64,000 nucleotides of DNA from Candidatus Latescibacterota bacterium (GCA_965248355.1 OZ252098.1:672001-736000), one strand, 5' to 3'; shown: positions 23,083-62,337, numbered from the stretch's first letter. Notes: generated by a model not told the origin, from the letters alone. Translations and numbers: made by a program.

Positions 23083-23097
23083 GATAGGACGGGGATC

Positions 23098-25017: not shown

Positions 25018-25018
25018 A

Positions 25019-42297: not shown

Positions 42298-43545
42298 GTG
42301 AAACCCTCGGAACTACGCGAACTGATAGCCGGCGGCGAGAACTCCGGACTGGAGTTCAAGCGGGATGATCTGCGCCCGGAGCAACTGGCTCGGGATGTGG
42401 TGGCGCTAGCCAACTTCCAAGGGGGCCGCGTCCTTCTCGGCGTGGAAGACGACGGCGCCATCACCGGTATACGGAGAACAGATCTCGAACAATGGGTGAT
42501 GGACTCCGTGTTCGGGCGCCTGGTTCATCCGATGATACTGCCGTTCTACGAGGAAGTTCCGGTCGATGCTGTTCGCCGAGTCGCGGTTGTCACTGTCACC
42601 CAGGGGGCCACCAAACCCTACGTCGTCCGGCATCGCGGCGGAGAAGAGATCTACATACGGGTCGGCAGCACCTCCCGGCGAGCCTCGCGTGAGCAGCAGG
42701 CGCGCCTCTTCGCGGCCGGTGGGTTGATTCACACGGAGCTGTTGCCCGTTTCCGGCAGCGGCCTGTGCGATCTGAGCCGGGAACGGCTGGCGGATTATCT
42801 CACCGCCATCGTCCGCGACCGGGAAGTGCCGGAGGACGACGAGACATGGAACGAGCGGCTCTGCGCGCTGGGATTCATGGCCGAGCGGGAAGACGGCCCG
42901 CCCGTCTGTACGATCGCCGGATTGATCCTGTTCGGCTACCGGCCCCGCCGCCTCCTGCGCCATGCCGGCATCCGCTGGATGTGCTTTGAGGGGCAGGAGA
43001 AGAGCTACGATGCCCTCGACGATCAAGTGATCGAAGGGCCGCTCGTCGATCTTTGGCAGGTGCTCTCAGGGGGGCGTGAACTGGTGGAGAAGGGACTGAT
43101 CGAACGCCTTGCCGATGCGATGCGGCCCTTCGTATCGGAGGAGGCCGGCCAGGTCGCAGAATCGATGCGCCGGGAACGACGCTGGCACTATCCGCTGGAA
43201 GCGCTGCGCGAAGGCGTTGTAAACGCTCTCACTCACCGGGACTGGACGCGGTACGAGGAGATCGAGGTGGTCCGCTACTCGGACCGGTTGGAGATACTCA
43301 GCCCCGGCGCGCTGCAGAACGGCATGACCGTCGAGAAAATGGTCGCCGGCCAGCGGGTGCCCCGCAATCTGCTCATCTCCGAGACCTTGCGGGACTACAG
43401 CTATTCCGATGCGCGCGGCATGGGGGTGCGGAACAAGATCATCCCGTTGATGCGGGCCCACAACGGCGTCGACCCGGAGTTCGAGGCGACGGAGGACTAC
43501 CTGCGGTTGACGCTGAGGCGGGGGTCGGGCAAGGGTTCAGCATGA
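42298..43545 (+). CDS. AlbA_2 (Schlafen-like) domain + HATPase_c_4 (RecG C-terminal-like) protein
   Basis: GENSGLEFK, VALANFQGG..LLGVEDDG, YIRVGS, ALREGVVNALTHRD, ILSPG, RN and GMGV. Confidence 0.85.
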   Translation: MKPSELRELIAGGENSGLEFKRDDLRPEQLARDVVALANFQGGRVLLGVEDDGAITGIRRTDLEQWVMDSVFGRLVHPMILPFYEEVPVDAVRRVAVVTVTQGATKPYVVRHRGGEEIYIRVGSTSRRASREQQARLFAAGGLIHTELLPVSGSGLCDLSRERLADYLTAIVRDREVPEDDETWNERLCALGFMAEREDGPPVCTIAGLILFGYRPRRLLRHAGIRWMCFEGQEKSYDALDDQVIEGPLVDLWQVLSGGRELVEKGLIERLADAMRPFVSEEAGQVAESMRRERRWHYPLEALREGVVNALTHRDWTRYEEIEVVRYSDRLEILSPGALQNGMTVEKMVAGQRVPRNLLISETLRDYSYSDARGMGVRNKIIPLMRAHNGVDPEFEATEDYLRLTLRRGSGKGSA

Positions 43546-43811: not shown

Positions 43812-44701
43812 CTGGTACCGAAGTCTTTCAGCTACGCGGCGCGACGATAGACTGCCGGGATTGGTCTGCTGCTCCATGCCTAGGGCAAGTCCCATTTTCA
43901 GTTGAAACGTAGCCCAGGCTCGAGTGGATGAGTCAGCCCGTCATCGCGAGCTGTTTGAGGCCGAGTTCGGCTTGGAGCGCTTGTCGGAGCATCGGCAGGT
44001 GGTGGTAACCGTTGATCCGGCGCAGGCGAGGTTCGATGTCGAGCAACGCCGTGGCGACCCAGCGGTGACGCTGCGACGAGTTCGTCCAGCGCCGCACGTT
44101 GTGCGTCAACTGCTCCAGGAGACTGTTGACGTTCTCGATACAGTTGGTGGTACGGAAGGAGGCCTTCAGCATCGGCATCAGGCCCAGGCGGTGGAGCGTG
44201 AGGGTTTCTTGCTGGCCTTCCTCCAAGCTGCGCAGGGCCGACTGGTTCATCAACTGCAACCCCGGTTTCAGCGCCTCCAGGGCGGCTTGGGCCTCCTCGT
44301 ACGTCGAGTGCCCATACGCCGCTTCCAGCTTTCGACGAAGGCCGGCCTGCTCGCTCTTGGGCAGGTACGAGACCACGTTCTGGCGCTTGTGATACTGGCA
44401 TCGCTGCACGCAGGCATGGCCCTGGAGCACCGACCGCACTGCCTTGTACAGGCCCTTGCCTCCATCGATCACCACGAGCAGCCCGGCCTCGTATTGCAGG
44501 CCCCGCTCGACCAACTCCGCCAGGAAGCGACGACAGACGCGCTCGTTCTCGGTCGCCGCCTGCACGAAACCCAGAGGGATCTTGTGTCCTTCCACAGTGA
44601 CGCCCAGGGCGATGAGGATTTCCTCGTCGGCAAAGCTCTTGCCGTCCAGAAACAGCGCCACCAGGTCGTAGCCTTCCAGGGATCGCTGCTGGAATTCGGC
44701 C

Positions 44702-46257
44702 GGGTGTAGCCTTCACTTTACGCAGATTGTCGATAAAAGGGGGACCCCAAGTCCGGGCACGAATGTATCTTTGGGTGTAAGGACTTACGCCCAAACCCGG
44801 AAAGGGGTCCCTGATGGAAGATACGAAGGATTTTCACGCTCGCCTGACAAAGTTCGAGGAAAATGTCCTCCAGTGGGAGCATCGCCCGCAATCCCCGGAG
44901 GCCGGCCCGGAGGACTTTCGCGAGAGGGTGAGCGAGTTGCGAGATGCTTTGGACGACCTCGGTCGAATCGGTTTCCAACGGCTGGCGCAGGCGTGCGAGA
45001 TCGCCGACGACACCGTGGTCCACCACGGTCGGGTCTACCGGTTCAAGCAAGTGGTCCACAAGGAATGGATGACCCTGTGGGGCAAGGTCCAGGTGCCGCG
45101 TCGGCTGTATCAGCCCGATCGGGGCGGCCCCAGCCGGGTGCCCTTGGATGAGCGCTGCGGCATGGTCCACCGATTCATGGTGCCGGCGCTGGAGCGTTTC
45201 ACGGCCTTTCTGGGCGCCCGCCTGGTCCCGGCCGAAGTCGAGGCCAGCTTGGCCGAGCTGTTGCCGGCGTCCCCGTCGCGCACCGCCATTCAGCATCTGT
45301 TGACCACCGTCGGTCAGTACGCCGAGGACCACGCCGAGCAACTCGAGCTGGCCTTGCAGGAGGCGGCGCCCCTAAAGACCGAGGGCGACACCCTGGTGGT
45401 CAGTTGGGACGGCGTCACCGTGCCGCTGCGGGAGCCGGCGCCGAAACGCGGACGGCCCGCCGAACGACCGACGGATCCCGACCCCGACCGCGCGCCCACC
45501 GCCTGGAAGGAGGCCGGGGTAGGGATGGTCGCCACGTATGGGACGCCGCTGGACCCGGCGACGGAAGACCCCCAACGCGTCGATGTGCGCTACGCCGCGC
45601 GCATGCCGGAGCCCAAGATGAAGACCCTGGTCCACGGCTTGGTGGAGGAGACGGCCCGGGCCCTGCAGCGGGGGGAGTATGACCACCGGGTGGTGTTGGC
45701 CGACGGCCAGCGCCAGATCTGGCGCAGCGTGGATCGGCAGCCGGTGTTCGACGGCTTCACCCGGATTCTCGACTTCTATCACGCGGCCCACCACCTGTCA
45801 AAGGCCGCCGAGCCCCTCTTCGGCAAGCGGTCGTCGAAAGCGGCTCGCTGGTACCGATCCTGGCGGCACAAACTGCGTCATGAGCCCGGGGCCGTTCAGG
45901 GCCTGATCCGCTCCCTGGCCTACCACCGCCGCAACCTTCGTCCCGGCTCCCAACGCCATCGTCAGGTGACCACCGAGCTGGGCTACTTCCGGAACAACCG
46001 GGACAAGATGGACTACGCGCGCTATCGCGCTTCGGGGTTGATCCTCTCCAGTGGTCCCGTGGAGGCCGCCGCCAAGACCCTGGTCGGCCATCGACTCAAA
46101 CGCAGCGGCATGCGCTGGACCCGCCAAGGAGGCCAGCAGATCCTCAATCTACGAGTCCACGTGCAATCCCAACGATGGGAGGCCTTCTGGAACTGGTACC
46201 TCCATCAGACTACACAACAGACCGACAAGACGGCTGCGTAAAACCGAGGCTACACCC
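44702..46257 (+). mobile_element. ISKra4-like (ISKra4/ISLre2 group) insertion sequence
   Basis: 24-bp inverted repeats GGGTGTAGCCTTCACTTTACGCAG and CTGCGTAAAACCGAGGCTACACCC. Perfect 8-bp duplication ATTCGGCC at 44694-44701 and 46258-46265. Confidence 0.88.
44814..46241 (+). CDS. ISKra4-like DDE transposase
   Basis: SWDG, LADG, ILDFYHA, MDY...SGPVEAA and RLKRSGMRW. Confidence 0.88.
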   Translation: MEDTKDFHARLTKFEENVLQWEHRPQSPEAGPEDFRERVSELRDALDDLGRIGFQRLAQACEIADDTVVHHGRVYRFKQVVHKEWMTLWGKVQVPRRLYQPDRGGPSRVPLDERCGMVHRFMVPALERFTAFLGARLVPAEVEASLAELLPASPSRTAIQHLLTTVGQYAEDHAEQLELALQEAAPLKTEGDTLVVSWDGVTVPLREPAPKRGRPAERPTDPDPDRAPTAWKEAGVGMVATYGTPLDPATEDPQRVDVRYAARMPEPKMKTLVHGLVEETARALQRGEYDHRVVLADGQRQIWRSVDRQPVFDGFTRILDFYHAAHHLSKAAEPLFGKRSSKAARWYRSWRHKLRHEPGAVQGLIRSLAYHRRNLRPGSQRHRQVTTELGYFRNNRDKMDYARYRASGLILSSGPVEAAAKTLVGHRLKRSGMRWTRQGGQQILNLRVHVQSQRWEAFWNWYLHQTTQQTDKTAA

Positions 46258-46872
46258 ATTCGGCCAGCTTGCGCGCCGTGCCTTTCACATACCGGCGAGA
46301 GACCGAGGAACGGGACAGACCGAAGGCTTGCGGGACGGTCTCGGCGCAGGCCTCGTAGTTGCGCGTGGCCAGGCCCTTCAGCACCCGCAACAACAGCCCC
46401 TGATCCATCTGCCTCGGCGTCTGCAGGGCCTGGTAGGCCTCCAGCGGGACCTCGGTGCCGCGGACCACATCGCGCACGCGCGGCACCTCGACCGGCAGTT
46501 TCTGATCGCCCAGGTACACCGACCCGGCCTGCGCCCCCCAGCGGCGCAACGGCTGATCCGGCCCCTTGCGCTGATACCGAGGTCCGGCCAGGGCCTCCAC
46601 GCCCCGTCGCAGCTCCTCCCCAACCGCCTGCAGCCCCAGGGGGATCAGCAGCTGGATGATCTCGATGCGAGTCTCCAGATCGTCCATCGACGCGGTGGCT
46701 TGGCGGTTCACGGGGCCGATGGTCACGGTCCGTTTGACGCCCCTTTTCCGTGCTTGTAGCTTGCTCATGGCAGGCTCCTTGGGTTACCGAATACGAGGCT
46801 TCTTGGCGATTTCTCGTATCAAACGTAACGATGGGAGCCTGTGTTATTTCAACTAAGATCGGGACAATGCCC

Positions 46873-49848
46873 ATGCCTATGCACCCCATCCATCGCCGTT
46901 ACCACGCAGAAGAGTTGGTCCGCCTCCGGCGCGCTGGGGAACGTCGAAGGCAGGTAGCGTCACAACGCCGTGGGCGGATCGACCCCAACCCGCACCAGAT
47001 CGACGCCGTGATGTTCGCGCTCCGCCGCATCCCAGAGGGCGGCTGCATCCTCGCGGACGAGGTCGGGCTCGGCAAGACCATCGAAGCCGGCCTCGTCATC
47101 GCGCAACTGCTGGCAGAGGGGGCCACGCGGATTCTCATCATCTTGCCGCGCCCTCTACTCGGACAGTGGCACCAGGAACTCTACACGCTTTTCGGCATTG
47201 AGGCCGTCGAGGCGACGGATGCCGCTGTGGACATTGCAGGCTCCGGCGTGTTCCTCGTCGGGCGGGAATACGCAGGCGGTAACGCGGGGTTCGAACGCCT
47301 ACGGGGATCCCCGCCGTTCGATCTCTGTCTGATCGACGAAGCCCACGAGGTATTCGCGGGTATCCACCGTCGGTTCGACCGCGACGGAGTTTACGACGAA
47401 GACAGCCGATACGCGCGCACGGCGCATCGGGTGCGAAAAATCATCGGCGCGTCACCGGTACTGCTGCTGACCGCGACGCCAATTCAGAATACGCTCGCCG
47501 AATTGTGGGCGCTTGTCCAATACGTTGATCGTACCGGCACGCTGCTCGGCGCGAAACCCGTGTTCGAAGGTCTTTTCTGCTCCGGCGGCGATGGCCGCGG
47601 CGTCGCTGCGGAACAGGCTCAGGAACTCAAGCGCCGGCTCGGCACCGTCGTTCAACGCACGCTGCGCCGCCAAGCTCAGGATTTCCTTGACAAGCCGTTC
47701 GTCGGCCGCCGGGCTCAGCTCTTCGAGTATCGCATGAGTCCGGCCGAGCGGGCCCTGTACGACGATGTCATCGGGTATCTGTTGAGCCCCAGGCTGTATG
47801 CTTTTCACGGCCGTTCGCGGCAGTTGCTCCTGCTCGGCTTCCACCGACGCATGGCGTCTTCCACGGTCGCGCTGGCCACGAGTCTCGATCGTGTAGCGGA
47901 CCGATTGCGGGCCATGTTGGAGGGCAGCACAGAACAGGGCACGGGTGCTGTTTTTGCGGAAGATCTCGAAGACGATCCGATGGAGGCGCCGGCAAACGAC
48001 AACGTCGACCCGCAAGTCACCGAAGCGGCCAGAGTGACGGCGTTGGACGGCGCCGCGGTGTGCGGAGAGTTGGCGCTCGTGGAAGACTTCGCGCGGCGAG
48101 CCCACGCGCTGCCTCGGGACAGCAAGGCCCAAAGCTTGGTTACTGCGGTGCGCCTCGTCATGGACCGCCCCGAGGATCGGCGCAAGGTGGTGATCTTCAC
48201 GGAATCGCTTACCACTCAAGACTACCTGCGTGGGCTACTTCTCGACCAGACAGAACTCGTGGACGGTGACATCACACTCTTTCGGGGAATCAACGACTCG
48301 CCCCGGGCGCTCACCGCGCTCAAGGTCTGGCGCGAAGAGGTCGAGCCTGACATCGCGCACCACCTACGGCCGAGTCCGACCGTTGCTGTGCGCCTCGCCC
48401 TAGTGCATGAGTTCCGCACACGCTCCGCAGTGCTGATCTCGTCAGAGGCCGGGGCTAAGGGCCTCAACCTGCAGTTCTGCGATACTGTCGTCAACTACGA
48501 TTTGCCGTGGAATCCGCAACGCATTGAGCAGCGCATCGGCCGTTGCCACCGTTACGGTCAGCAGCGCGACGTCACCGTGATCAACTTCCTCGCCAAGGAC
48601 AACGAGGCGGAGCGCCTCACGTTCGACATACTCAGCACCAAACTCGATCTGTTCGGCAAGGTGCTCGACATGTCCGATGTAGTGCTCCAGACGCCGCGCT
48701 CGGATTCGTCCGAGGAGTTGGCCTCGGCGCTCGGCCCGGACTTCGAGGCCGAGGTGCGCCGCATCTGGGACCGGGCGCGGTCGGTGCAGGAGGTCGAGGA
48801 CGAGTTGCGCCGCCTGCGCGACACGCTGGAAGAACGCCGACAAGAACTGGAGCAAGTGCGTGGACGCACGATGGGGCTCATCGAAGAGAGCCTCGACGAG
48901 TCCGTGCGCGAAGTCTTCTGCCGCATCCAATCCGACCTGCCGGCAACCCTCGCCGAACTCGATGAGGAACTCGAGCGCGTGCTAACAGCCTATCTCAATG
49001 CAGCGGGCGTTGCCTGGGGTGCCTCTGAGCGAAACGGGCGCCGGGTGTTCCACATCGGAGCTTCTCGGCGCCTCCCAAGGCACACTGCCGCTGGCGTGAC
49101 GGTGGCCCTCGGCTCTGCGCGTGATCTTGCCGACATCGAGTCGCTGCACCTCGCCCATCCGCTGATCGAAGCTGCGGTCGCCGAAGCCCGCCGGGCTGGC
49201 GCTGGCGCTTTCCGTGTTCGTTTCCGTCTCGGCGCCGACGCTCCCGAAGTATTGCGGCGGCATCTTGGCGCTCGTGGCCGCTTGGCGCTGACGAAGGTCA
49301 TCCATCGCGGTTTCGAGGCGGAGGATCGGCTCCGCGTTACAGCCGTGTTCGAAGATGCGGAAGTCCTGCGTCCGGCGGAGGCGGCACTTGATCTGCTGCA
49401 CCAACATGCCGAAGACGTGGGTGTCTTCGATCCGCCGCTCGCTGTGACCGCCGAACACTTGGACGAGGTAGTCGGCGAGGAGATGTTTCTCGATCACTGC
49501 GTGGTCGCGCCCGGCGACCGCTCGGCCTTTGAGGAGGCCATGGACCAGCTCGACCAGTTCGTTGCCGACCGTGTCCTGGTATTGCGCCGGCTCCGGGACC
49601 AACACGCTAAGCGCCTCGCCGCCGCCGAGCACCAGCGTGATCGGGCACTAGGTTTGGACAACCGGAAAAAGGCAGAGGCGCGTATACGCGCCGAGGAGAC
49701 CAGGATCGATGAACTTGACGCGCAGGTCGCGCAACTTGCCGCGCGCGAAGACGACACGTACCGACGCTGGAAGGAGGCCGCGCACCGTCGCCGCTTTCAG
49801 CGTCCGGAAACAGAGCGGCTGCTGACGGCGGAGTTTGTTATCGAGTGA
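46873..49848 (+). CDS. SNF2-family (RapA/HepA-like) helicase with a long C-terminal extension
   Basis: PHQ, ILADEVGLGKT, DEAH, LTATP, VIFTE, EAGAKGLNLQ and YDLPWNPQRIEQRIGRCHRYGQ. The ATG lies in the IS256 target duplication. Confidence 0.92.
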   Translation: MPMHPIHRRYHAEELVRLRRAGERRRQVASQRRGRIDPNPHQIDAVMFALRRIPEGGCILADEVGLGKTIEAGLVIAQLLAEGATRILIILPRPLLGQWHQELYTLFGIEAVEATDAAVDIAGSGVFLVGREYAGGNAGFERLRGSPPFDLCLIDEAHEVFAGIHRRFDRDGVYDEDSRYARTAHRVRKIIGASPVLLLTATPIQNTLAELWALVQYVDRTGTLLGAKPVFEGLFCSGGDGRGVAAEQAQELKRRLGTVVQRTLRRQAQDFLDKPFVGRRAQLFEYRMSPAERALYDDVIGYLLSPRLYAFHGRSRQLLLLGFHRRMASSTVALATSLDRVADRLRAMLEGSTEQGTGAVFAEDLEDDPMEAPANDNVDPQVTEAARVTALDGAAVCGELALVEDFARRAHALPRDSKAQSLVTAVRLVMDRPEDRRKVVIFTESLTTQDYLRGLLLDQTELVDGDITLFRGINDSPRALTALKVWREEVEPDIAHHLRPSPTVAVRLALVHEFRTRSAVLISSEAGAKGLNLQFCDTVVNYDLPWNPQRIEQRIGRCHRYGQQRDVTVINFLAKDNEAERLTFDILSTKLDLFGKVLDMSDVVLQTPRSDSSEELASALGPDFEAEVRRIWDRARSVQEVEDELRRLRDTLEERRQELEQVRGRTMGLIEESLDESVREVFCRIQSDLPATLAELDEELERVLTAYLNAAGVAWGASERNGRRVFHIGASRRLPRHTAAGVTVALGSARDLADIESLHLAHPLIEAAVAEARRAGAGAFRVRFRLGADAPEVLRRHLGARGRLALTKVIHRGFEAEDRLRVTAVFEDAEVLRPAEAALDLLHQHAEDVGVFDPPLAVTAEHLDEVVGEEMFLDHCVVAPGDRSAFEEAMDQLDQFVADRVLVLRRLRDQHAKRLAAAEHQRDRALGLDNRKKAEARIRAEETRIDELDAQVAQLAAREDDTYRRWKEAAHRRRFQRPETERLLTAEFVIE

Positions 49849-50837
49849 ACGACGCGGCCGGAAAAGTCCAGGATGCAGAGGAGAGAGACGTGGCGCTGAC
49901 GTTGCTGCACACCGCTGACTGGCACCTCGGCCGCCGCTTTCCCGCGTTCGGCCCCGACCAGGAGCTACGTCTGACCCGGGCCCGCTTGGAGGTCGTCGGC
50001 CGCATTCTGGACTTGGCGGACAGCCGCGCGGTCGATGCAGTGCTCTGCGCCGGCGATCTGTTCGATCAACCGGTGCCGGACCGGGAGTGGTGGGACGGCG
50101 TCCTGAAAGAGTTTCAGCGCCGGGATTGGCAGCGCCCGGTGCTGTTGCTGCCGGGCAACCATGACCCGCTAACACCGCGTTCCCTCTATCACCACGACCA
50201 CCCGTTCCGAACCGGACTACCCGGCTACGTGCACATCGTCGATAGGCCAGGGTGGCAACTGCAGCTCGGCGAGAACGCCGACTACCTCGCCATCGGCGAC
50301 ACCCACGCCTTCCGCGATGTTGAGCCGGACGCGCCTAGGCCCACGGTTTACCCGGGCGCGCCGGAAGCCACCAACTTCGGTGAAAAGAACACATGCAACG
50401 TGGCCATCGTCTTCTTCCCTCTTGATCGCCGTCGCCGTGCCTTAGTCCGGCCCGAAGTGGTTGGCTCCTGGACTTGGCGTGAAACGACCTGCCGGTCTAT
50501 GGCGGAACTGCGCGCGCTCAGCGTGGCACCGGATCTGCGCAGGACCGTGCTGCGCCTGACCCTCGACATGGCATTGCCCATGGCCGAGTACGACGAGGCG
50601 GAGCGCATCCTGGGCGAACTCGGTGGCTCCATGGCCACAACGCCGCGGGTCGGCGTCCTCGTCGTGGACCGCACCGGGCTGCGACTCGCCAAGGATGCAC
50701 CCATCGAGTTCGGCACCGAACTGCCGCCCGTCCTGCTCGCCGCCGTGGGCAGGTTGCAAGCTCACGCCGAGAACGAACCCGCGCTTGCAGAGCGTGCCCT
50801 GCACCATCTTTACCGCTTGGCGCGGGAGACAGGTTGA
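49845..50837 (+). CDS. Mre11/SbcD-like nuclease (metallophosphoesterase), probably with an in-frame internal deletion
   Basis: HTADWHLG, AGDLFD, LPGNHD, DYLAIGDTH and YPGAPE. The His-Gly motif segment between GNHD and DYLAIGD is absent. Start is GTG 49845 (GTGA overlap) or GTG 49890. Confidence 0.82.
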   Translation: MNDAAGKVQDAEERDVALTLLHTADWHLGRRFPAFGPDQELRLTRARLEVVGRILDLADSRAVDAVLCAGDLFDQPVPDREWWDGVLKEFQRRDWQRPVLLLPGNHDPLTPRSLYHHDHPFRTGLPGYVHIVDRPGWQLQLGENADYLAIGDTHAFRDVEPDAPRPTVYPGAPEATNFGEKNTCNVAIVFFPLDRRRRALVRPEVVGSWTWRETTCRSMAELRALSVAPDLRRTVLRLTLDMALPMAEYDEAERILGELGGSMATTPRVGVLVVDRTGLRLAKDAPIEFGTELPPVLLAAVGRLQAHAENEPALAERALHHLYRLARETG

Positions 50838-53800
50838 CGACATGTGGATCAGACGCCTCCACGTGACCGATTGCGCTGGCATCGCCGATGCCTCCATTGA
50901 CCTGGAATTCGGGCTGAATGTCCTACACGGTCCCAACGAACTTGGCAAATCCAGCTTGGTTAGCGCCGTTCGCGCGGCATTGCTCCTGCAGTCGTCCTCG
51001 TCCGCCGCCGAGCCTCTGCGCGATTGGCACGCAGACGCGGCGCCGGTGGTGGAGCTCACCTTCGAGGAGGAAGCGCAGCGTGTGTGGCGGGTGCGCAAGA
51101 GTTTCGCGAGTAGTGGCGGCTATGCCTATCTCGATTTCTCCCGCGACGGCAGCGAATTCACCCAAGATGGTAGGGGTGGCGAAGTCGACGGGAAGCTTCG
51201 GGATCTCCTGCGCTGGGGTGTCGAAGCACCGGGCGGCCGCCGGGGTCGGCGCGGCATGCCGGAGTCCTTCATCACGACCGCTCTCCTCGGCGAGCAGAGC
51301 GACGTCGTCGCCATCTTGGGGAGCAGCCTCGACAAGGATCCGGACGGCTCGGGCCGCGAACGTCTCACTGAGGCGCTGCAGGCGATGGCGGAAGACCCGC
51401 GCTTCAAGCGGGTTCACGCGGCTGTGCAGCAAAAGGTGGACGAAGCGTTCACCGCCACCGGCCGGAGACGCTCCGGCCGTGCATCGCCTTGGTCGCAGAT
51501 CCGCGAGCAACGCGTCGCCGCCGAAGCGAACGAGCGCAACGTTCACCAGCAGATGGAGGAAAGCGAGGGCGCACGACTGCGCATCGAGGAACTGCACCGC
51601 GAATTGCTGGCGGCGGAGTCGGAGAAGGAACGGACGGCCGGCGTTCTCGCGAATTCTCAAGCTGCCCTCGAACAACGCAGGAAGCGTGCAGCGACCACCG
51701 ACAGCCTTGCCGATGCCCAGGCCGAGTTTGACCGCATTCAGGGGCTATTCGCGAAACGCGACGACAACGTCGACGCTATCAACACCGCAAGAGAGAAGGT
51801 CGCCAAGCTTGAATCCGCCTGCGGAGAAGCCGAAACCGCCGCGGAAGCTCTGGCGCCCCGGGTCGAGGCCGCGCGGCAAGGCGTGCGCCGCCTGGAGACC
51901 GGCGCCGGCGAGCAGCAACGCCGGTTGCGGGAGGAGGAGGCGAAGAATCGCCTCTTGAAGCTGAGACACGACGAGGAAGCACTTGAACGCGACATCGCCC
52001 GGGCCGAGGCCTTGGCCACGCTCGACGAGGAGGTGACCGCGCTAGCGGCCGACATCGAAGAGCGCGAAGCTGCTCTTAATGAGAGCCGAGATCTCTTGGG
52101 CCAAGCGCAGGACGTTACCGACAGTGATCAGGAGGAGATTGTAGGTCTCGAAATCAAGCGTCGCTGTGCCCGCTATCTCGTGGCGTTGGACGCAGCGCGG
52201 GCGTCCACCAAGAAACTCGATACCGCACGGGAACACATCGGGCAGGCGACCGTACTGGAACGCAAGGCCGCCGAGGCGCACGAAGAGGCCAGCAATTTGG
52301 GTGCGCCAGTTGTCGCTGAACTCGATCGGCTCGATCACTTGAGACGGATCGGCGCATCGCCCAAGAGAAACTTGCCGTTGGACTCGTCGTGGGCGTCGAG
52401 CTGAAGCAGGCTGGTGATGCCGAAGTCAACATCGACGGCCAGCCGCGGCAGGTTCGAATCGGGCTCGGCAAACAGGCCAAATTCGAGGCCGAGCGGGAAC
52501 TGCGACTCGACATCGCCGGCATTGGTGCTATCCACGTGCGCGGCGGAGGCCGCGACCTTCTGCGTGCGGCCAAAGCTGCGGAGGATAGCTGGAACGCCGC
52601 TGCGACGCCGATCTTCACCCGTACCGGCTGCGCGGCCCTCGGAGAACTCGAGGATCTGCGCGAGCGCGCCGACGGCTATCGCGAAACAGCCGTCGACCTC
52701 GAACGGCAAGCCGAGCAGGAGCGGGTGCGAGCAGAAGGCGTCGATGAATTCGAACGCGGCGTCGTCGTCGCGAAGGCTGAGGAAGAACAACGCCGCTCTG
52801 CGCTTGCAGAGTTGCTTGAGGAAGACGAATCCGTGGAGGAGTACTTGGAAAGCCTTGACGAGCCGCCGGACGACGAACTCGCCTTGGAGGAGGCCATTGA
52901 GAAGCGTCGCACCGTTATGCAAGATCGCGAGGAGCTCTGTCAGCGAATGGAAAGCAAGGTCACCGATGGGGAAGGGGAGGTTGTGCGTCGAGGCCGAGAA
53001 CTCGCTGGCAAACGGGCGCTGCTGCGTGAGGGATCGGAGATGGACGACTGGCGCGCGTTTCTCGCCGGAGTGGACGCTGAGCGGGACCGCTTGAGTCGGA
53101 GACTCGAAGCAGTCGATGACGAGTTGGCGCTGATCGGGGCCGAAGGGGCCGCCGAAGTCGGTGAGGCGCGGCAGGCACTCAACGATCTCGCCGGCGAGGA
53201 GAATCGGGCCCAAGAAGCGTTGCGCGTGGAAACCGAGCAATTGGCGAACGCCCGCGACGAACTCTCTAGGCTCGAAGGCGAGGCGGCCGGGCTTCGAGCA
53301 GCGACCGAAAACGAGGACTTGGAAGCCGGTGGAAGGTTGCGCGATCAACACCGTGACAAATTGGACGCGCTACCGATTCCGATCGACGACATCGATCCGG
53401 CAGAGCTTCAGGATGTCGAGAGTGCCGCCACCGCTACCGCCGATTGCTTCCGGCAACTCGAGATGCAACTCCGAAACGCCGAAGGTGCGCTCGAACAGGT
53501 GGGCGGCCAGTACATACTGGAACGGGCCGAACAGGCGGGTCAGGCCCTTCGCGCTCTGGCAGAACGTGAAAGCGAGCTCGACTTGGAGTACAGAGCGTGG
53601 CGGCTTTTGCACGAAACCCTCGTGCAAGCCGAAAAGGAAGATGCGGTACATCTCGGCAACGCCTTGGTAAAGCCCGTCAGCGAGCGTATGGCCGCGTTGA
53701 CCGGGGGCCGATATGGCGAGATTGCCATCGGCCCGCAACTCGAGGCCGCCGGAATCCAGTCGGCTGGCTGCGAACGCAAATTCGAGGCCCTGTCCGTCGG

Positions 53801-53883
53801 TACCCTGGAACAGATCGCGCTGTTGCTGCGACTCTCCATCGCTGAAGCCCTCGATAGCTTCATAGTCTTCGACGATCAGCTTA

Positions 53884-55180
53884 GGCACTGCGCAGAAATA
53901 AACGCTGTTCTTTCTGATAGAAAGGTGTTATCCTTGACGGGTGGACACGGAAAGCACCCTGCGGGCGAAATACGAAGCCTTGACGCCGGTGTTGAACGAG
54001 CGCACGCGACGCTTGTGGGCCGCGTCGGAGGCGCAAGCCCTGGGACATGGCGGCATTGCGGTGGTGGCCCGTGCGACGGGCCTGTCGCGGACCCGGATCG
54101 CTCGCGGCCTGCAGGAACTGCGGTCGGACGCCCCGTTGGACTCCGGCCGTGTGCGTCGGCCGGGCGGCGGCCGCAAGCGGCGCGTCGACACCGACGTGAC
54201 GCTGTTGTCGGACCTCAACGCCCTGCTCGAGCCGGTCACCGCCGGGGCGCCGGACGACAGCCCCTTGCGATGGACGTCGAAGAGCATCCGCAAGTTGGCG
54301 GTCGAGTTGCAGGCCCTGGGCCATTCGGTGAGTCCTGGCCTCGTCCACGGACTGTTGCACGAGCTCGGCTACACGCTGCAGGCGAATCGCAAGACGAAAG
54401 AAGGCACGCAACACCCGGATCGGGACGCCCCGTTTCACTACCTCCACGACCAGGTCCGAAGGGCCCAGGCCCAAGGCCAGCCGGTCATTTCGGTGGACAC
54501 CAAGAAGAAGGAGCTGATCGGCGACTTCAAGAACGTGGGTCGCCCATGGCGTCCGAAGGGCGAGCCGGAGCGCGTGAAGGTCCACGACTTCATCATCCCG
54601 GCCCAGGGCCAGGCGATTCCCTACGGGGTCTACGACCTGGGCCGCAACGAGGGCTGGGTCAGCGTCGGCGTCGACCACGACACCGCCCACTTCGCGGTGA
54701 ACGCCATCCGCAGCTGGTGGAAACGCATGGGTCGTCCGGCCTACCCGGCGGCCTCGCACCTGTGGATCACGGCCGATGCGGGGGGCCGCAACGGTCCGAG
54801 ACTGCGGCTGTGGAAATGGGAATGGCAGCGCTTGGCCGATCGCACGGGCCTGACGATCACGGTCTGCCACTATCCTCCGGGCACGAGCAAGTGGAACCGC
54901 ATCGAGCATCGCCTGTTCTCCTATATCGCCATGAACTGGCGAGGCCAACCTCTGGTCAGTCTGGCCACGGTGGTCAACCTGATCGGCCGGACGACAACGA
55001 AGAAAGGGCTTCGCGTGCGCGCCGAGATCGACAAGCGAGCGTATCCCAAGGCCGTGGTCGTCAAGGACGAGCAAATGGAGCGGATCCATCTCTCGCCCCA
55101 TGCGTTCCACGGGGATTGGAACTACACGATCCGGCCGGCCACTGAGGGTTGAAGTGAATCATCTGTTTCGGGACAAAGCC
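53884..55180 (+). mobile_element. ISAzo13-family insertion sequence
   Basis: Imperfect inverted repeats GGCACTGCGCAGAAATAAA and TCTGTTTCGGGACAAAGCC. TTA duplication at 53881-53883 and 55181-55183. Confidence 0.88.
53941..55152 (+). CDS. ISAzo13-family (Rhodopirellula-type) transposase
   Basis: LNERTRRLW, PLRWTSKS, ISVDTKKKE, PYGVYD, TADAGG, PPGTSKWNRIEHRLFS and HGDWNY. Confidence 0.92.
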   Translation: MDTESTLRAKYEALTPVLNERTRRLWAASEAQALGHGGIAVVARATGLSRTRIARGLQELRSDAPLDSGRVRRPGGGRKRRVDTDVTLLSDLNALLEPVTAGAPDDSPLRWTSKSIRKLAVELQALGHSVSPGLVHGLLHELGYTLQANRKTKEGTQHPDRDAPFHYLHDQVRRAQAQGQPVISVDTKKKELIGDFKNVGRPWRPKGEPERVKVHDFIIPAQGQAIPYGVYDLGRNEGWVSVGVDHDTAHFAVNAIRSWWKRMGRPAYPAASHLWITADAGGRNGPRLRLWKWEWQRLADRTGLTITVCHYPPGTSKWNRIEHRLFSYIAMNWRGQPLVSLATVVNLIGRTTTKKGLRVRAEIDKRAYPKAVVVKDEQMERIHLSPHAFHGDWNYTIRPATEG

Positions 55181-55477
55181 TTACGCAATCCGATCCCGTG
55201 CGCATGGTGTGGATGCGGGAACTACTTGAGAGAGCGGCGGAACAGATCCAGGTGGTCGTATTGACATGCCATCCTGAGGATTACACGGTTGGGGATGGGC
55301 AACGTCATGTCGTGGACTTGTCGAGTTGCATTCGGCGGCGGGAGGTCTCGAACGCGCAAGTCGATGACGGGGAGGACGGCCTTGGTTCCGAGGCGCCACA
55401 TGACTCCGCAGTTGAAGTCGACTCAAGTAACGCAGACCCCGCGGAGCAGGCCGATCCTTCCCCGACTCGGCGCTCTA

Positions 55478-56648
55478 GTGTCGCGTCCGACAAATGAGTT
55501 GTAAAAACAGAGTCAAGGCCTTATCTTCAGGCCATGGCCCGCCCGGTGTCCCGCCTTGAGTTGACCGCGTCCGAGCGACAGGAGTTGGAGCGTCGCGTCA
55601 GGGCCCCCTCCGCGTCCCAGCGCGACAGCCTGCGCGCGGCCATCGTCCTGCGCCGGGCCGAAGGGATCAAGCAGGTGCAGGTGGCCGCCGAGTTGGGCGC
55701 CAGTGTGGCGTGTGTGAACAAGTGGTCGCAACGCTTTGATCGCGAGGGTTTGGCGGGACTGAACGACGCCAAGGGCCGGGGCCGGCCGGCGAGCTTGCCG
55801 GCGGACAAGGTCGAGCAGGTCCTCACCGCGGTCACGCAGCCGCCGAAGCCGCGCACGCGCTGGAGCGTGCGCTCGATGGCCCAGGCGGCGGGGATGTCGC
55901 CGGACAGCGTGCACCGGATCTGGAAGGCCAACGACATCAAGCCCCATTTGACCAAGACCTTCAAGGTCTCCACGGACCCGCACTTCGAGGAAAAATTCTG
56001 GGACGTGATCGGGCTCTACCTGGATCCCCCCGAGCGCGCGCTGGTGCTGTGCTGTGACGAGAAGAGCCAGTGCCAGGCGCTGGAACGGACCCAGCCGGGC
56101 TTGCCGCTGGGGATCGGCGACATCCGCACCCGGACCCACGATTACAAGCGCCACGGTACGATCACCTTGTTCGCCGCGCTCAACTACCTCGACGGCAAGC
56201 TCATCGCGCGTCTGGAGGCGCGTCATACCCACGTCGAATGGCTCCGCTTTCTCAAGCAGATCGACCGCGAGACGCCCAAGAACCTGTCGCTGCACCTGAT
56301 CGTGGACAACGCCGGCCCCCACAAGGAGGAGAGCGTGCAGCATTGGTTGTCTCGGCATCGGCGCTTCCATGTCCATTTCACCCCCACCAGTTCCTCCTGG
56401 ATGAACTTGGTCGAACGGTTCTTCGGCGAGCTGACGCAGGATGTGATTCGGGACGGCAGCTTTGCCAGCGTCGGGGAGTTGGTGCGCGACATCGAAGCCT
56501 ACTTGGCGCAGCGGAACTTGGCCCCCAAACCCTACCGCTGGAAGGCCGACGGCGAGACCATCCTGCGCAAGATCCAGCGCGCTCGGGAGACGGTGGCGGC
56601 GACATCGGACAGCCCTTGTTGATTCTTCTTAATTCTCGGACGGGACAC
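55478..56648 (+). mobile_element. IS630-family insertion sequence
   Basis: Inverted repeats (TA)GTGTCGCGTCCGA and TCGGACGGGACAC(TA). TA duplication in a CTAG context. Confidence 0.88.
55534..56622 (+). CDS. IS630-family transposase
   Basis: HTH region, CCDEKSQ, THDYKRHGT, IVDN and FTPTSSSWMNLVERFF. Confidence 0.93.
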   Translation: MARPVSRLELTASERQELERRVRAPSASQRDSLRAAIVLRRAEGIKQVQVAAELGASVACVNKWSQRFDREGLAGLNDAKGRGRPASLPADKVEQVLTAVTQPPKPRTRWSVRSMAQAAGMSPDSVHRIWKANDIKPHLTKTFKVSTDPHFEEKFWDVIGLYLDPPERALVLCCDEKSQCQALERTQPGLPLGIGDIRTRTHDYKRHGTITLFAALNYLDGKLIARLEARHTHVEWLRFLKQIDRETPKNLSLHLIVDNAGPHKEESVQHWLSRHRRFHVHFTPTSSSWMNLVERFFGELTQDVIRDGSFASVGELVRDIEAYLAQRNLAPKPYRWKADGETILRKIQRARETVAATSDSPC

Positions 56649-56751: not shown

Positions 56752-58755
56752 ATGAGAAGCCCCCGGTTCTTCAACGTCGTCCTCGTGTTGATTTCTGCCC
56801 TGCCCGCACAGGAAAGCCGCGCCCAGGACCATACCCGCATGGGTCTGCCCGAAGGGGCTGATGCGCGTCTCGGCAGGGGGTCGCTGTTCGGGATCGGTTT
56901 CCTGCCCGACGGCCGGCTCGCGGCGGCCACCAGTATCGGCGTGTGGCTGTACGACACTCGCACCGGCGGCGAAGTCGCCCTGCTCCCGGGGGAACACAAG
57001 GATGATGTCCATGACGTCGCGTTCTCGCCAGACGGCCGCACCCTGGCTGCCAGCGAGAGCTGGGACCCCACGATCCGGCTGTGGGACGTGGAGAGCGGCC
57101 GCCTGAAGGCGGCCCTGGAGGGGAATGGGGGCGGGGTCTGCTCCGTGGCCTTCTCGCCGGAGGGGAAAGTCCTCGCCGGCGGGGGATTCAACAGCAGGGC
57201 CATTCGGCTGTGGGACGTGGAGAGCGGCCGGTTGAAGGCAACCCTGGATGCTGGCAGGAACGGCACCTGTGCCCTCGCCTACTCGCCGGACGGAAACACG
57301 CTGGCCACCGACGGCCGCGGCGGAATCCTGTTGTGGGATGCCGGGACGGGAGAGCTCAAGGGCATCTTGGAGGGGAACAGGTATGGCGTCAGTTACCTTG
57401 CCTATTCACCGGACGGGAGGATCCTGGTCGGCCATGGAGACGACGGCACGATCCAGCTGTGGGACACGGGCACCGGCGAGCTGAAGGTCGCCATCGAGAG
57501 GCATGAGAGCAGCGTCCGGAGCGTGGCCTTCTCACCCGATGGCCACATCTTGGCAGCCGGCACCTGGGATGGCCCGGTCCAGCTGTGGGACGTGGAGCAC
57601 GGCCACCTGAAGAGCACCCTGGAAGGACATGGGGGCAAGGTCTTCGCCGTGGCCTGGTCGCCCGATGGCCGGACTCTGGCCAGCGCGGGCCGGGACGGCG
57701 CGGTCAGGTTGTGGGACGCCGCGAGCGGAGCACCGACAGCGAACCTCGACGGGCATGGCAGTCCCATCGGTGCTGTCGTGTATTCGCCGGATGGGCGTAC
57801 CCTCGCCAGCGGGAGCAGGGACGGCGTGATCCGGTTGTGGGACACGGACAGCGGCCTCCGCCGAGCGATCTTCAGGGTACATCTGGACAGGATTACGTCC
57901 CTGGCTTACTCGCCGGATGGCAGTACCCTCGCCAGCGGGAGTCGCGACGAGACCATCCACCTGTGGGAACCCGGGACGGGCCACCGGATGGTCATCAGGG
58001 GGACCAGGCACTATCCCTGGTCGCTGGCATTCTCGCCGGACGGTCGGACCCTGGCCAGTGGGGGAGGTGGGTGGGATGGGGAGTCCCGGGTGGCTGGAGA
58101 GACCCGGTTGTGGGACGCTGGCACCGGCCTGCCGGAGACTGTCCTCGACAGGCCTGGAGTCACGGTCTGGTCCGTGACTTTCTCGCCTCATGGTCACATC
58201 CTGGCCAGTGGTCTGGCCGACGGCCGGCTCAAGCTGTGGGACGCCGACACCGGCCGGCTGCTGGCCACCCTCCGGCAAGGCCGGGAGTGGGTCTTCTGTC
58301 TGGCCTTTTCCCCGGACGGCTTCAACCTGGGCCATTGGGCGAGGTCCGTGGCGTTTTCCCCGGATGACGGCACCCTGGCCAGTGGCAGTTGGGACGGCAC
58401 GATCCTGCTGTGGGACATGTCGCCGTACGCCACGCCTGCCCCTGCCGACGCGCCGGAAGCAGGGGAGGAGGAGCCGGCCGCGAGCATCCTGGAGCCCGCC
58501 GCCCCGAATCCCTTCAACATCACCACCCGCATCGCCTACCGGATCGCTACCCCCGGTCCGGTGCGGCTGGAGGTCGTGAATGCTCTGGGGCAGTCGCTGC
58601 ACACGCTTGTGAACGAGGTGCAGGCTCCCGGCTCCTACCAGGTCTACTGGAATGCCCGCAACCAGCGCGGCTCCCCGGTGGCCGCGGGCGTCTACTTCAC
58701 CCGCCTCAGCCACTCCGGCGGGGTGCAGGTGCGGCGGCTGCTCTATCTCAGGTAG
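56752..58755 (+). CDS. Secreted WD40-repeat protein with a C-terminal FlgD/T9SS-like Ig domain
   Basis: Signal peptide, GLPEGADARLGRG, about 13 repeats of the type GH..V..(A)FSPDG..LASG..D..IRLWD, and PNPFN...WNARNQRG...GVYF. Confidence 0.9.
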   Translation: MRSPRFFNVVLVLISALPAQESRAQDHTRMGLPEGADARLGRGSLFGIGFLPDGRLAAATSIGVWLYDTRTGGEVALLPGEHKDDVHDVAFSPDGRTLAASESWDPTIRLWDVESGRLKAALEGNGGGVCSVAFSPEGKVLAGGGFNSRAIRLWDVESGRLKATLDAGRNGTCALAYSPDGNTLATDGRGGILLWDAGTGELKGILEGNRYGVSYLAYSPDGRILVGHGDDGTIQLWDTGTGELKVAIERHESSVRSVAFSPDGHILAAGTWDGPVQLWDVEHGHLKSTLEGHGGKVFAVAWSPDGRTLASAGRDGAVRLWDAASGAPTANLDGHGSPIGAVVYSPDGRTLASGSRDGVIRLWDTDSGLRRAIFRVHLDRITSLAYSPDGSTLASGSRDETIHLWEPGTGHRMVIRGTRHYPWSLAFSPDGRTLASGGGGWDGESRVAGETRLWDAGTGLPETVLDRPGVTVWSVTFSPHGHILASGLADGRLKLWDADTGRLLATLRQGREWVFCLAFSPDGFNLGHWARSVAFSPDDGTLASGSWDGTILLWDMSPYATPAPADAPEAGEEEPAASILEPAAPNPFNITTRIAYRIATPGPVRLEVVNALGQSLHTLVNEVQAPGSYQVYWNARNQRGSPVAAGVYFTRLSHSGGVQVRRLLYLR

Positions 58756-61880: not shown

Positions 61881-62183
61881 TCAGGCAGCGCTCTGGCGCT
61901 TGATGCGCGCCTCCGTCTCCGGGCTGAGGCCCAGGCGGGCTTGCTTCAGGTCGTAGCAGGCCTGCAGGTTGAGCCAGTATTCCGCGGAGTTCCCGAAGTA
62001 AAGGGACAGCCGCAGGGCCGTGTCCGCGGTAATCCGGCGCCGGTTGTTGACGATGTCGGCGATCCGGTTCGGGGAGATGCCGATGGCGCGGGCGAGCTGG
62101 TTCTGAGACAGCTCGTACTCGGCGAGGAACTCCTCCTTCAAGATCTCCCCGGGAGTGACAGGAGAGAATTCGGGGTCGGCCAT
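61881..62183 (-). CDS. higA: HigA-family antitoxin (HTH_3)
   Basis: TPGEILKEEFL, LSQNQLARAIG, RRITADTALRL and YWLNLQACYDL. Confidence 0.9.
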   Translation of the reverse strand: MADPEFSPVTPGEILKEEFLAEYELSQNQLARAIGISPNRIADIVNNRRRITADTALRLSLYFGNSAEYWLNLQACYDLKQARLGLSPETEARIKRQSAA

Positions 62184-62196
62184 GGAAGACTCCCAA

Positions 62197-62289
62197 TCAG
62201 TGGTAGTCGATAATCCGGACGCCATGTGCGTTGCCCGCCTTCCAGCGAAAGACGACGCGCCACTGGTCGTTGATCCGGATCGAGTAGTG
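62197..62289 (-). pseudogene. higB: HigB (RelE-like) toxin, C-terminal remnant
   Basis: HYSIRINDQWRVVFRWKAGNAHGVRIIDYH* directly upstream of higA. The N-terminal part is absent or frameshifted. Confidence 0.8.
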
Positions 62290-62337
62290 TTACCGCGTAC
62301 CGGGATGCGGTCAAGTGGGGAGAGTCGGCGAAGATCG

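Follow-up and report, generated by a model that had tools for sequence, protein, structure and literature searches.

Gene content and state of the locus

The locus described here lies in a window of 64,000 nucleotides (the whole stretch of DNA analysed) from a Candidatus Latescibacterota bacterium (GCA_965248355.1 OZ252098.1:672001-736000). It consists of three tightly packed, head-to-tail open reading frames (ORFs) on the + strand, encoding in this order an SNF2 helicase, a metallophosphoesterase nuclease and a coiled-coil ATPase (Table 1). This trio represents a cassette that is real, widespread and compact, and that was absent from the libraries and the literature searched. Judged by its sequence matches, it combines Mre11/Rad50-type machinery with a defence-type SNF2 helicase. 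The GTG start of the nuclease gene at 49845 overlaps the TGA stop codon of the SNF2 gene (49846-49848) within a GTGA, and a 4-nt gap separates the end of the nuclease gene from the start of the ATPase gene.

Table 1. Positions of the three genes and of the lesions found in them, counted from the first nucleotide of the window.
Feature	Position	Strand	Remarks
SNF2-family (RapA/DrmD-like) helicase/translocase	46873..49848	+	991 aa, apparently intact
SbcD/Mre11-like metallophosphoesterase nuclease	49845..50837	+	330 aa, in-frame 61-aa deletion; probably inactive
Rad50/SbcC-like (SbcE-like) ATPase, N-terminal head and first coiled-coil arm	50842..52332 (end approximate)	+	AAA_23/AAA_27; co-linear with L005
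ATPase frameshift site	52330..52340	+	three-frame translation compared with L005
ATPase middle: apex beta-domain, second coiled-coil arm, signature (LSVGTLEQ), Walker B (FIVFDD)	52334..53883 (start approximate)	+	translations; motifs located in L005
ISAzo13-family insertion, directly past the ATPase Walker B	53884..55179 (approximate)	+	transposase 53941-55152, PF07592 E 1.4e-134
ATPase C-terminal tail with H-loop (LTCHP)	55184..55497	+	translation matches L005

The SNF2 ORF spans 46750..49848 (+), and the protein counted from the start at 46873 has 991 residues. It matched the Pfam domains SNF2-rel_dom, Helicase_C and ResIII. The protein appears to be intact, since it was co-linear with its 989-residue counterpart in the related locus L005. 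Over residues 600-991, the part searched, it was 99% identical to the 991-residue protein P0121. The motifs GLGKT, DEAH and QRIGRCHRYGQ were invariant in 42 SNF2 sequences. The best solved relative by profile was RapA (E 4e-33), and the C-terminal part of the protein (residues 640-991) was RapA_C-like (ESM Atlas score 0.96). Among the PADLOC models the best match was DrmD (PDLC02619, 394 bits, residues 33-691), and the HmaA model also matched (E 2e-41). With the NCBIfam models, the motor scored 393 bits for DISARM_DrmD_b (NF038318), as compared with a curated cut-off of 950, and residues 519-967 scored 213 bits for DrmD (NF038317), as compared with a cut-off of 610.

The nuclease ORF matched Metallophos in Pfam and had SbcD and Mre11 as its best curated matches; in a PDB profile search it was related to the Thermotoga and E. 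coli SbcD/Mre11 proteins (E 3e-15). The score of the window protein with TIGR00619 (sbcd) was 59 bits (family range 59-64, cut-off 77.65). The family carries the motifs DxH, GD, GNHD/E, H and GDxH, and the corresponding residues (D21, H23, G66-D67, G100-N101-H102-D103, H177, G208-D209 and H211) were invariant in 35 intact homologues. The window protein lacks 61 consecutive in-frame residues that were found in all ten homologues aligned (376-408 aa). The junction lies at about 50279/50280, and the nearly invariant HGQTFD stretch, which holds the fourth phosphoesterase motif, was lost with the deletion. This loss must be recent, because the 376-residue protein P0001, which was 100% identical over the aligned columns, retains the missing stretch. 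As judged from the motif loss, the window nuclease is probably inactive. When 1.84 billion representatives were searched with a profile of the nuclease, 660 matched at E <= 1e-30, and some 30 of these were full-length with more than 300 bits. In one representative, P0256 (1,338 aa), the first 270 residues matched the nuclease profile at 453 bits; going by its length, this may be a nuclease-ATPase fusion or a read-through.

The ATPase gene lies in three pieces and encodes about 1,100 residues when these are put together. Near 52,333 a frameshift was found, where the translation passes from '...AELDRLD' to 'SLETDRRIAQEKLAVGL...', and L005 reads 'AELDQLRSLETDWRIAREKLAVGL'. The second interruption is an ISAzo13 element (transposase 559 bits, NCBIfam), which cuts the gene just after 'FIVFDDQL' and is bordered by CTTA at both junctions (53880-53883 and 55180-55183). 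The reading frame resumes after the element with 'TQSDP', and the tail reads 'TQSDPVRMVWMRELL...VVVLTCHPEDY', as compared with 'TQSDPERMTWMRDLL...VVVMTCHPEHY' in L005. The N-terminus carries a P-loop of the Rad50/SMC type (AAA_23, AAA_27), and the Rad50 head was matched in the PDB profile search (E 1e-10). Scores of the ATPases with Pfam AAA_27, which we take to be the YhaN-type head family, were borderline (20.6-22.1 bits, cut-off 22) and covered the first 46-62 residues only. The Rad50 models of NCBIfam gave 33 bits or less, against cut-offs of 700-1087, and none of the three trio proteins reached a curated NCBIfam cut-off.

The complete ATPase of L005 (1,076 aa) carries Walker A (GPNELGKS), Q-loop (LLGEQ), signature (LSVGTQEQ), Walker B (IVLDD) and H-loop (TCHP) motifs, divided between both ends of the protein with a coiled coil of about 800 residues between them. 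The GK[ST] of Walker A, the Ser, Gly and Gln of the signature and the DD of Walker B were invariant in the ATPase homologues. No CxxC motif was found anywhere in 36 full-length homologues. The centre of the L005 protein (residues 465-630) was modelled as two helices, a six-stranded beta-domain and two further helices, with a predicted local distance difference test (pLDDT) value of 96. The ATPase is without a zinc hook and, according to this model, carries a small beta-domain at the apex instead. The apex domain gave no PDB match at E <= 0.001 with Foldseek and no named relative in the ESM Atlas. The ATPase genes of four loci in a Kofleriaceae/Haliangiales clade (L060, L061, L064 and L073) are longer by about 200 residues, with about 1,282-1,297 aa as compared with the usual 1,050-1,160.

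The base composition of the trio at third codon positions (GC3) is foreign to the host, and it was counted in favour of the defence role considered below. The values for the three genes were 0.73-0.79, as compared with 0.94-0.99 for flanking host genes (efflux and malate-synthase genes). The malate synthase had relatives at 93-97% identity; among those with a lineage name, the best match was in a Latescibacteria metagenome-assembled genome, at 80%. The GC content was 0.62-0.68 across 42-57 kb and 0.70-0.76 in most flanking 1-kb windows. The whole lower-GC stretch extends over 42-59 kb of the window and also contains a Schlafen gene (AlbA_2/HATPase_c_4), an IS256 transposase gene split by ISKra4, and ISAzo13 and IS630 elements. 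Five families of insertion sequences (IS) were identified near the trio, namely IS256, ISKra4, ISAzo13, IS630 and the IS4 type (DDE_Tnp_1_4), and two IS4-type fragments lie farther upstream in the window.

The window system cannot work, because the nuclease is without its conserved His motif and the ATPase is both frameshifted and split by an IS. On this reading of the sequence, the copy is dead and only the helicase is whole. The features that the original prediction had stated for the locus were all borne out by these analyses. The intact 991-residue SNF2 helicase was supported by its Pfam domains and the co-linearity with L005, the GTGA overlap and the 4-nt gap by the ORF coordinates, and the weaker GC3 bias by the values given above. 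Family searches recovered the upstream Schlafen gene (42298-43545) and the five IS families, and the translations aligned with L005 supported a coiled-coil ABC ATPase of roughly 1100 residues with a frameshift and an insertion. For the nuclease, the assignment to the metallophosphoesterases held (Metallophos, SbcD/Mre11), but the 61-residue deletion, evident from the alignment of ten homologues, had been overlooked.

Conservation and spread of the cassette

The conserved peptides of the nuclease were used as query in a scan of one genome per species, covering 185,579 species, and at least 550 nuclease loci were confirmed. Synteny, flanks and neighbours were counted in the best 80 of these loci, nearly all of which come from metagenome-assembled genomes. 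They span Pseudomonadota (mainly Pseudomonadales), Acidobacteriota, Myxococcota, Spirochaetota, Planctomycetota, Verrucomicrobiota, Rokuibacteriota and Binatota; no actinobacterial locus was among the best 80, and an actinomycete origin, which the GC content had first suggested, was rejected for this reason.

Gene order was scored by tblastn with the window proteins. An SNF2 gene was directly upstream on the same strand in 74 of the 75 loci with room for it; the sole miss was L079, where an FG-GAP protein is encoded instead. The ATPase gene was directly downstream of the nuclease gene in 72 of the 74 loci with room for it; the exceptions were L020 and L004, in which the nuclease is truncated and the genes after it are unrelated. 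The original prediction had proposed conserved three-gene synteny as a test, and the outcome was positive: the same gene order in essentially all related loci is more than chance. All three ORFs were near full length in 52 of the 62 loci with room for the whole trio. Among the ten others, at least two (L025 and L076) look like artefacts of ORF calling and the rest are fragmented. Decay is frequent, with up to 10/62 loci short of three near-full-length ORFs in addition to the window copy, and was likewise counted in favour of a defence role.

The junction between SNF2 and nuclease genes was a 4-nt overlap in 32 of the 52 complete loci, and the junction between nuclease and ATPase genes was such an overlap in 20 of them, most of the others being 10 nt or less. 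These overlaps suggest stoichiometric co-production. When flank ORFs of at least 119 aa were clustered, no fourth conserved gene was found around the 80 loci. The cassette consists of exactly three genes, since no further flank family occurred in more than 7/80 loci. The pairwise distance matrices of the three proteins, compared over 32 shared loci, were strongly correlated (r = 0.92-0.93, with none of 999 permutations as high), a correlation that would also arise from shared organismal history alone. The trio is a self-contained, translationally coupled operon, which is inherited and in part transferred as one unit. The idea that the three genes are unrelated neighbours, or ORF artefacts of the kind that high-GC DNA produces in large numbers, has a negligible probability and is refuted by the gene order and overlaps, which are kept in dozens of loci from distant lineages, the family matches of all three proteins, the invariant catalytic motifs and the correlated divergence.

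The distribution was patchy across phyla, as the original prediction had asked to be checked. In the SNF2 tree (61 sequences) 15 phylum changes were counted, where the minimum would be 6 and shuffling gave a mean of 30.4. Gene tree and taxonomy disagree in the clade of the window: its well-supported 19 rows mix Pseudomonadota, Acidobacteriota and Spirochaetota at 64-85% identity. Single cross-phylum cases are weak evidence, because bins can hold foreign contigs. The opposite possibility that had been raised at the outset, a vertically inherited core locus, fits part of the family, namely the Myxococcota, where the operon is often flanked by housekeeping genes and appears to be inherited vertically.

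Close homologues were absent from the mobile elements searched. In 50,697 phage records the best match was partial, with 30% identity, and in 72,556 plasmids all matches were below 60%, the 30 best listed being at most 35% identical; megablast of the trio DNA against the plasmids gave no match. More distant relatives of the nuclease, at 30-35% identity, were found on rhizobial megaplasmids as pairs of a 'DNA repair exonuclease' and an 'AAA ATPase' without SNF2. It follows that the trio belongs, as a subfamily, to a broader family of two-gene pairs. On one Bradyrhizobium plasmid (L081, NZ_CP066352.1 152754-169665) a distant exonuclease and AAA ATPase pair closes a same-strand run, in which the other genes are five hypothetical ones and those for a response regulator and an ATP-dependent helicase of 1,138 aa; here the two-gene family may be linked to a helicase in another way.

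Relation to described systems and possible function

The nuclease and ATPase resemble SbcCD/Mre11-Rad50: a metallophosphoesterase with motifs I-V is encoded just upstream of a coiled-coil ABC ATPase, and the Walker A, Q-loop, signature, Walker B and H-loop motifs are split by the long coiled coil. They differ in the missing CxxC zinc hook and in an apex beta-domain that has no solved look-alike, in scores that are far below the NCBIfam cut-offs (64 vs 77.65; 33 or less vs 700-1087), and in being always joined to an SNF2 gene. Identity with canonical SbcCD was rejected in view of the missing hook and the sub-threshold scores.

A nearer likeness was found in Bacillus subtilis, where SbcE (YhaN) is described as an SMC-like ATPase that has no hook but a central domain of a distinct kind, and SbcF (YhaO) as an SbcD-like nuclease encoded just upstream of it (PMC2811018). 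Compared by description, the ATPase and nuclease of the trio are closer in kind to SbcE/SbcF than to SbcCD or to LmuB: in both pairs the ATPase is hook-less and has a central domain of its own, and its gene directly follows that of the nuclease. The B. subtilis pair differs in that it has no SNF2 partner, lies next to yhaM and is reported as conserved across Gram-positive bacteria.

The SNF2 protein has the same overall helicase architecture as DrmD of DISARM class 1, ArmA of ARMADA, IetH and BrxHII. The DrmD models span both its motor and its C-terminal region, but the scores stay under the equivalog cut-offs (393 vs 950; 213 vs 610). Neither flank clustering nor nearest-gene scans linked DrmA, DrmB (DUF1998), DrmC or the DrmMI methylase to the trio, and DISARM was rejected on the absence of DrmA/B/M. 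A further difference from DISARM-type helicases is the partner, a Mre11/Rad50-type nuclease, which was unreported with such a helicase in the literature searched. Lamassu and Wadjet are SMC-family defence systems that sense DNA ends or topology. Like them, the trio couples a nuclease to an ABC ATPase with a long coiled coil, and for the trio, too, sensing of DNA structure is plausible, as opposed to sensing of sequence or methylation. It differs from them in having no LmuA-, LmuC-, kleisin-like or Toprim partner, in the Mre11-type nuclease and in the added SNF2 protein. LmuB models matched the trio ATPase weakly (31-33 bits), mostly at the N-terminus and P-loop; given these P-loop-only matches and the absence of conserved extra genes, Lamassu was rejected. 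Hma, an anti-phage system that has been tested, is similar in that it joins an SNF2 motor to a nuclease (PMC11232893). In HmaA the nuclease is fused and of the PD-(D/E)xK fold, and no Rad50-like ATPase is involved.

PADLOC-DB 2.0 gave no match for any of four intact nucleases or for the window copy; for the ATPases the matches were confined to P-loop stretches of the GajA, LmuB, AriA and PtuA models, at 36 bits or less. The relatives are named in the databases only as 'SNF2-related protein', 'DEAD/DEAH box helicase', 'DNA repair exonuclease' or 'hypothetical'. The combination was not found in the literature searched, which included works on BREX, Dnd, YprA/ARMADA, domain-centric discovery and viral Mre11-Rad50. 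The original prediction had recognised no named system in the trio, and both PADLOC-DB 2.0 and the literature agree with this; 'unnamed' is nevertheless a provisional term. A full match to an existing defence model, which the prediction had allowed for, was not found either among the models searched (PADLOC-DB 2.0 and NCBIfam), the helicase reaching 393 bits as compared with 950 for DrmD.

The trio may be an unnamed defence system against mobile DNA, which is the reading that we prefer and in which we place about even confidence. Tested defence systems that require a RapA/DrmD-like SNF2 protein are ARMADA II (PMC13463889; bioRxiv 10.1101/2025.09.15.676423), ietHAS (PMC13069673) and Hma (PMC11232893). 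The closest plasmid relatives of the SNF2 protein (582 records) showed 35-37% identity over residues 36-637, and the two matches with context read (H43 and H51) were helix-turn-helix, SNF2, methylase and DEAD-helicase loci, the layout of DISARM class 1.

PADLOC was run at E <= 1e-20 on 240 ORFs from 69 loci, namely the two predicted genes closest to the trio on either side. A specific defence-family gene was found within two genes in 18 of the 69 loci (Table 2), a raw count to which no background rate is attached. When lone methylases, second SNF2 genes and a partial Ppl match were dropped, 13/69 remained. Ser/Thr kinases (L015, L056, L058), an IstB match to a 'DrmD' model (L035) and weak single matches (L010, the RecD match of L041, L060 and L062) were left out of the count.

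Table 2. Defence-family genes found within two genes of the trio (MTase, methyltransferase; REase, restriction endonuclease).
Locus	Neighbour
L003	DpdE/ZorD-type SNF2
L012	AbiEi
L013	MTase
L014	Ppl part, next to Schlafen gene
L023	PD-T4-4_A
L033, L066	AbiEi and AbiEii
L040, L041, L070	PDC-S37/Hhe-like helicase-REase directly upstream
L047	type II REase
L061	MTase, WYL
L065	GajA and GajB upstream, SspD downstream
L067	SngA
L069	AbiEii, MTase III
L073	PglZ and BrxHI, BrxHI overlapping the SNF2 start
L075	second SNF2
L076	ZorA and ZorB

Several observations weigh against a defence role. No defence neighbour was detected in 51 of the 69 loci. Housekeeping flanks were common among the first 120 flank ORFs examined with Pfam; examples are Glu/Gln-tRNA synthetases (L019 and L026), the methionine synthase MetH, and glycogen phosphorylase with glutathione peroxidase (L017, L018 and L021), a pair that recurs in Polyangiaceae. 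The Myxococcota sequences formed mostly coherent clades with shared flanks, as would be expected for a stable cellular gene, and the rhizobial pairs without SNF2 sit among metabolic genes. The PADLOC blank for two of the three genes fits novelty and a non-defence function equally. SbcE/SbcF, the characterised hook-less pair that is nearest in kind, acts in double-strand-break repair and competence (PMC2811018). The original prediction had proposed a mobile module acting against foreign DNA, and this is partly supported: conserved synteny, patchiness and the neighbours in 18/69 loci speak for it, but the latter are an association only, the nuclease and ATPase are nearer in kind to the SbcE/SbcF repair pair, the Myxococcota part appears vertical and the window copy is non-functional.

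SbcCD/Mre11-Rad50 cuts DNA at ends, hairpins and blocked ends. In cryo-EM work on the E. coli complex, it reportedly clamps DNA with its ATP-bound heads, closes its coiled coils and cuts with the nuclease dimer. By analogy, the nuclease and ATPase of the trio would form an SbcCD-like, ATP-gated machine that recognises and degrades DNA ends, hairpins or blocked ends; the pair would act as effector and would probably sense DNA ends as well. The SNF2 motor could track duplex DNA and bring the nuclease to its substrate or, alternatively, strip end-binding or nucleoid proteins that shield it. Since no methyltransferase is linked to the trio, the distinction between self and non-self would depend on DNA structure (such as free or protected ends, or phage and plasmid replication intermediates) instead of an epigenetic mark. 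The more detailed proposal, in which our confidence falls a little short of even, is that of a widespread unnamed immune system, the first built on a true Mre11/Rad50-type pair, in which the SNF2 protein would feed or unmask ends and a new apex domain would replace the hook. Such a three-gene cassette would move between phyla and at times plug into BREX, Gabija or Zorya islands.

The strongest competing explanation, tentative and rather doubtful in our assessment, is an accessory genome-maintenance module, in which an SbcEF-like nuclease and a RapA-like motor would act on the cell's own chromosome. The motor would clear roadblocks such as RNA polymerase or other proteins at breaks, stalled forks and transcription-replication collisions. 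The likeness to SbcE/SbcF, a hook-less ATPase with an upstream nuclease for which repair and competence functions are reported (PMC2811018), agrees with such a module, and so do the RapA relationship of the helicase and its RapA_C-like C-terminus. Housekeeping flanks in many loci, a placement that is conserved within Polyangiaceae and Myxococcaceae, and the absence of a linked methylase or other self-marking gene point in the same direction. For a repair function, however, the trio is rare and patchy, and its high cross-phylum identity and discordant tree do not fit, nor does a window copy with a foreign base composition, numerous IS elements and signs of decay. Gabija, Zorya, BREX, AbiE and restriction-modification genes are adjacent in a quarter of the loci, and the closest SNF2 relatives with context read are DISARM DrmD genes. 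An SOS-box-like motif was not found upstream of the trio (gamma-type 0/57), a weak argument, since the motifs have a limited taxonomic reach.

Phages commonly carry Mre11/Rad50-like pairs. The trio could also, although we consider this improbable, be cargo of mobile elements that serves the element itself, for example in recombination, processing of replication ends or competition with other elements, and does not defend the host. Integrase, Tn3, IS and toxin-antitoxin genes lie beside the close relatives L004, L005, L024 and L035, and the window copy is located in an IS-rich, low-GC island. Against this, no close homologue was found in the phage and plasmid collections, no conserved element backbone surrounds the trio, and many loci are in long chromosomal contigs amid housekeeping genes.

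Mre11-Rad50/SbcCD is a universal DNA-end-sensing machine that is often blocked by viruses. To our knowledge, its reuse in bacterial immunity has so far been demonstrated for no more than distant SMC relatives (Lamassu, Wadjet) and ATPases of the OLD type. If the trio does act in defence, a repair machine would have been recruited wholesale into immunity, as a genuine Mre11/Rad50-type pair with a defence-type SNF2 protein; alternatively, the trio would be the bacterial equivalent of end resection aided by a remodeller. In addition, it would provide DrmD/RapA-like helicases, which are needed in DISARM, ARMADA and ietHAS, with a tractable biochemical partner. The apex domain without a zinc hook would be a variant of the pairing between Rad50-like arms. 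What the window itself contributes is no more than a dead copy, and its value is the family to which it points.

Neighbouring genes in the window and at related loci

A very large helicase of superfamily 1 (SF1) with REase_MTES_1575 and DUF3320 domains was encoded at L040 (31-2448), L041 (1426-6036) and L070 (1566-6809). This SF1 helicase, which is matched by the PDC-S37/Hhe models of PADLOC, forms a flank cluster of six loci; in several loci of Acidobacteriota and Myxococcota its gene immediately precedes the trio and has the same orientation. At L073 (15-7032), in the metagenome-assembled genome of a member of the Kofleriaceae, PglZ and BrxHI (E 3e-300 and 0) are followed by the trio on the same strand, as if it were a BREX add-on.

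The Schlafen gene of the window (AlbA_2 and HATPase_c_4; 42298-43545, +) lies upstream of the trio and gave no PADLOC match at E <= 1e-20. Homologues of it (27-48% identity) were located within 10 kb of the trio in 4 of the 80 related loci, namely L014 (2849-4048), L022 (207-1403), L023 (3354-4580) and L052 (16563-17765). Between the Schlafen and SNF2 genes, an IS256-family transposase gene (43933-46768, -) is present in two parts, C-terminal (43933-44661) and N-terminal (46250-46768). It is split by an ISKra4-family element (44702-46257) with 24-nt inverted ends (44702-44725 and 46234-46257), whose transposase (44814-46241) scored 196 bits against a cut-off of 205.

Farther upstream, an 805-residue ORF (22600-25017, +) with good coding statistics lies between IS4-type (DDE_Tnp_1_4) fragments at 21797-22579 (-) and 25014-25727 (-); it gave no Pfam, NCBIfam or strong PADLOC match. 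Downstream of the trio, a WD40-repeat protein gene (56752-58755, +) contains about nine repeat units of 126 nt, and an ankyrin-repeat protein gene (62155-63999, +) continues past the end of the window. Eukaryote-like repeat proteins of these two types are common in host-associated bacteria.

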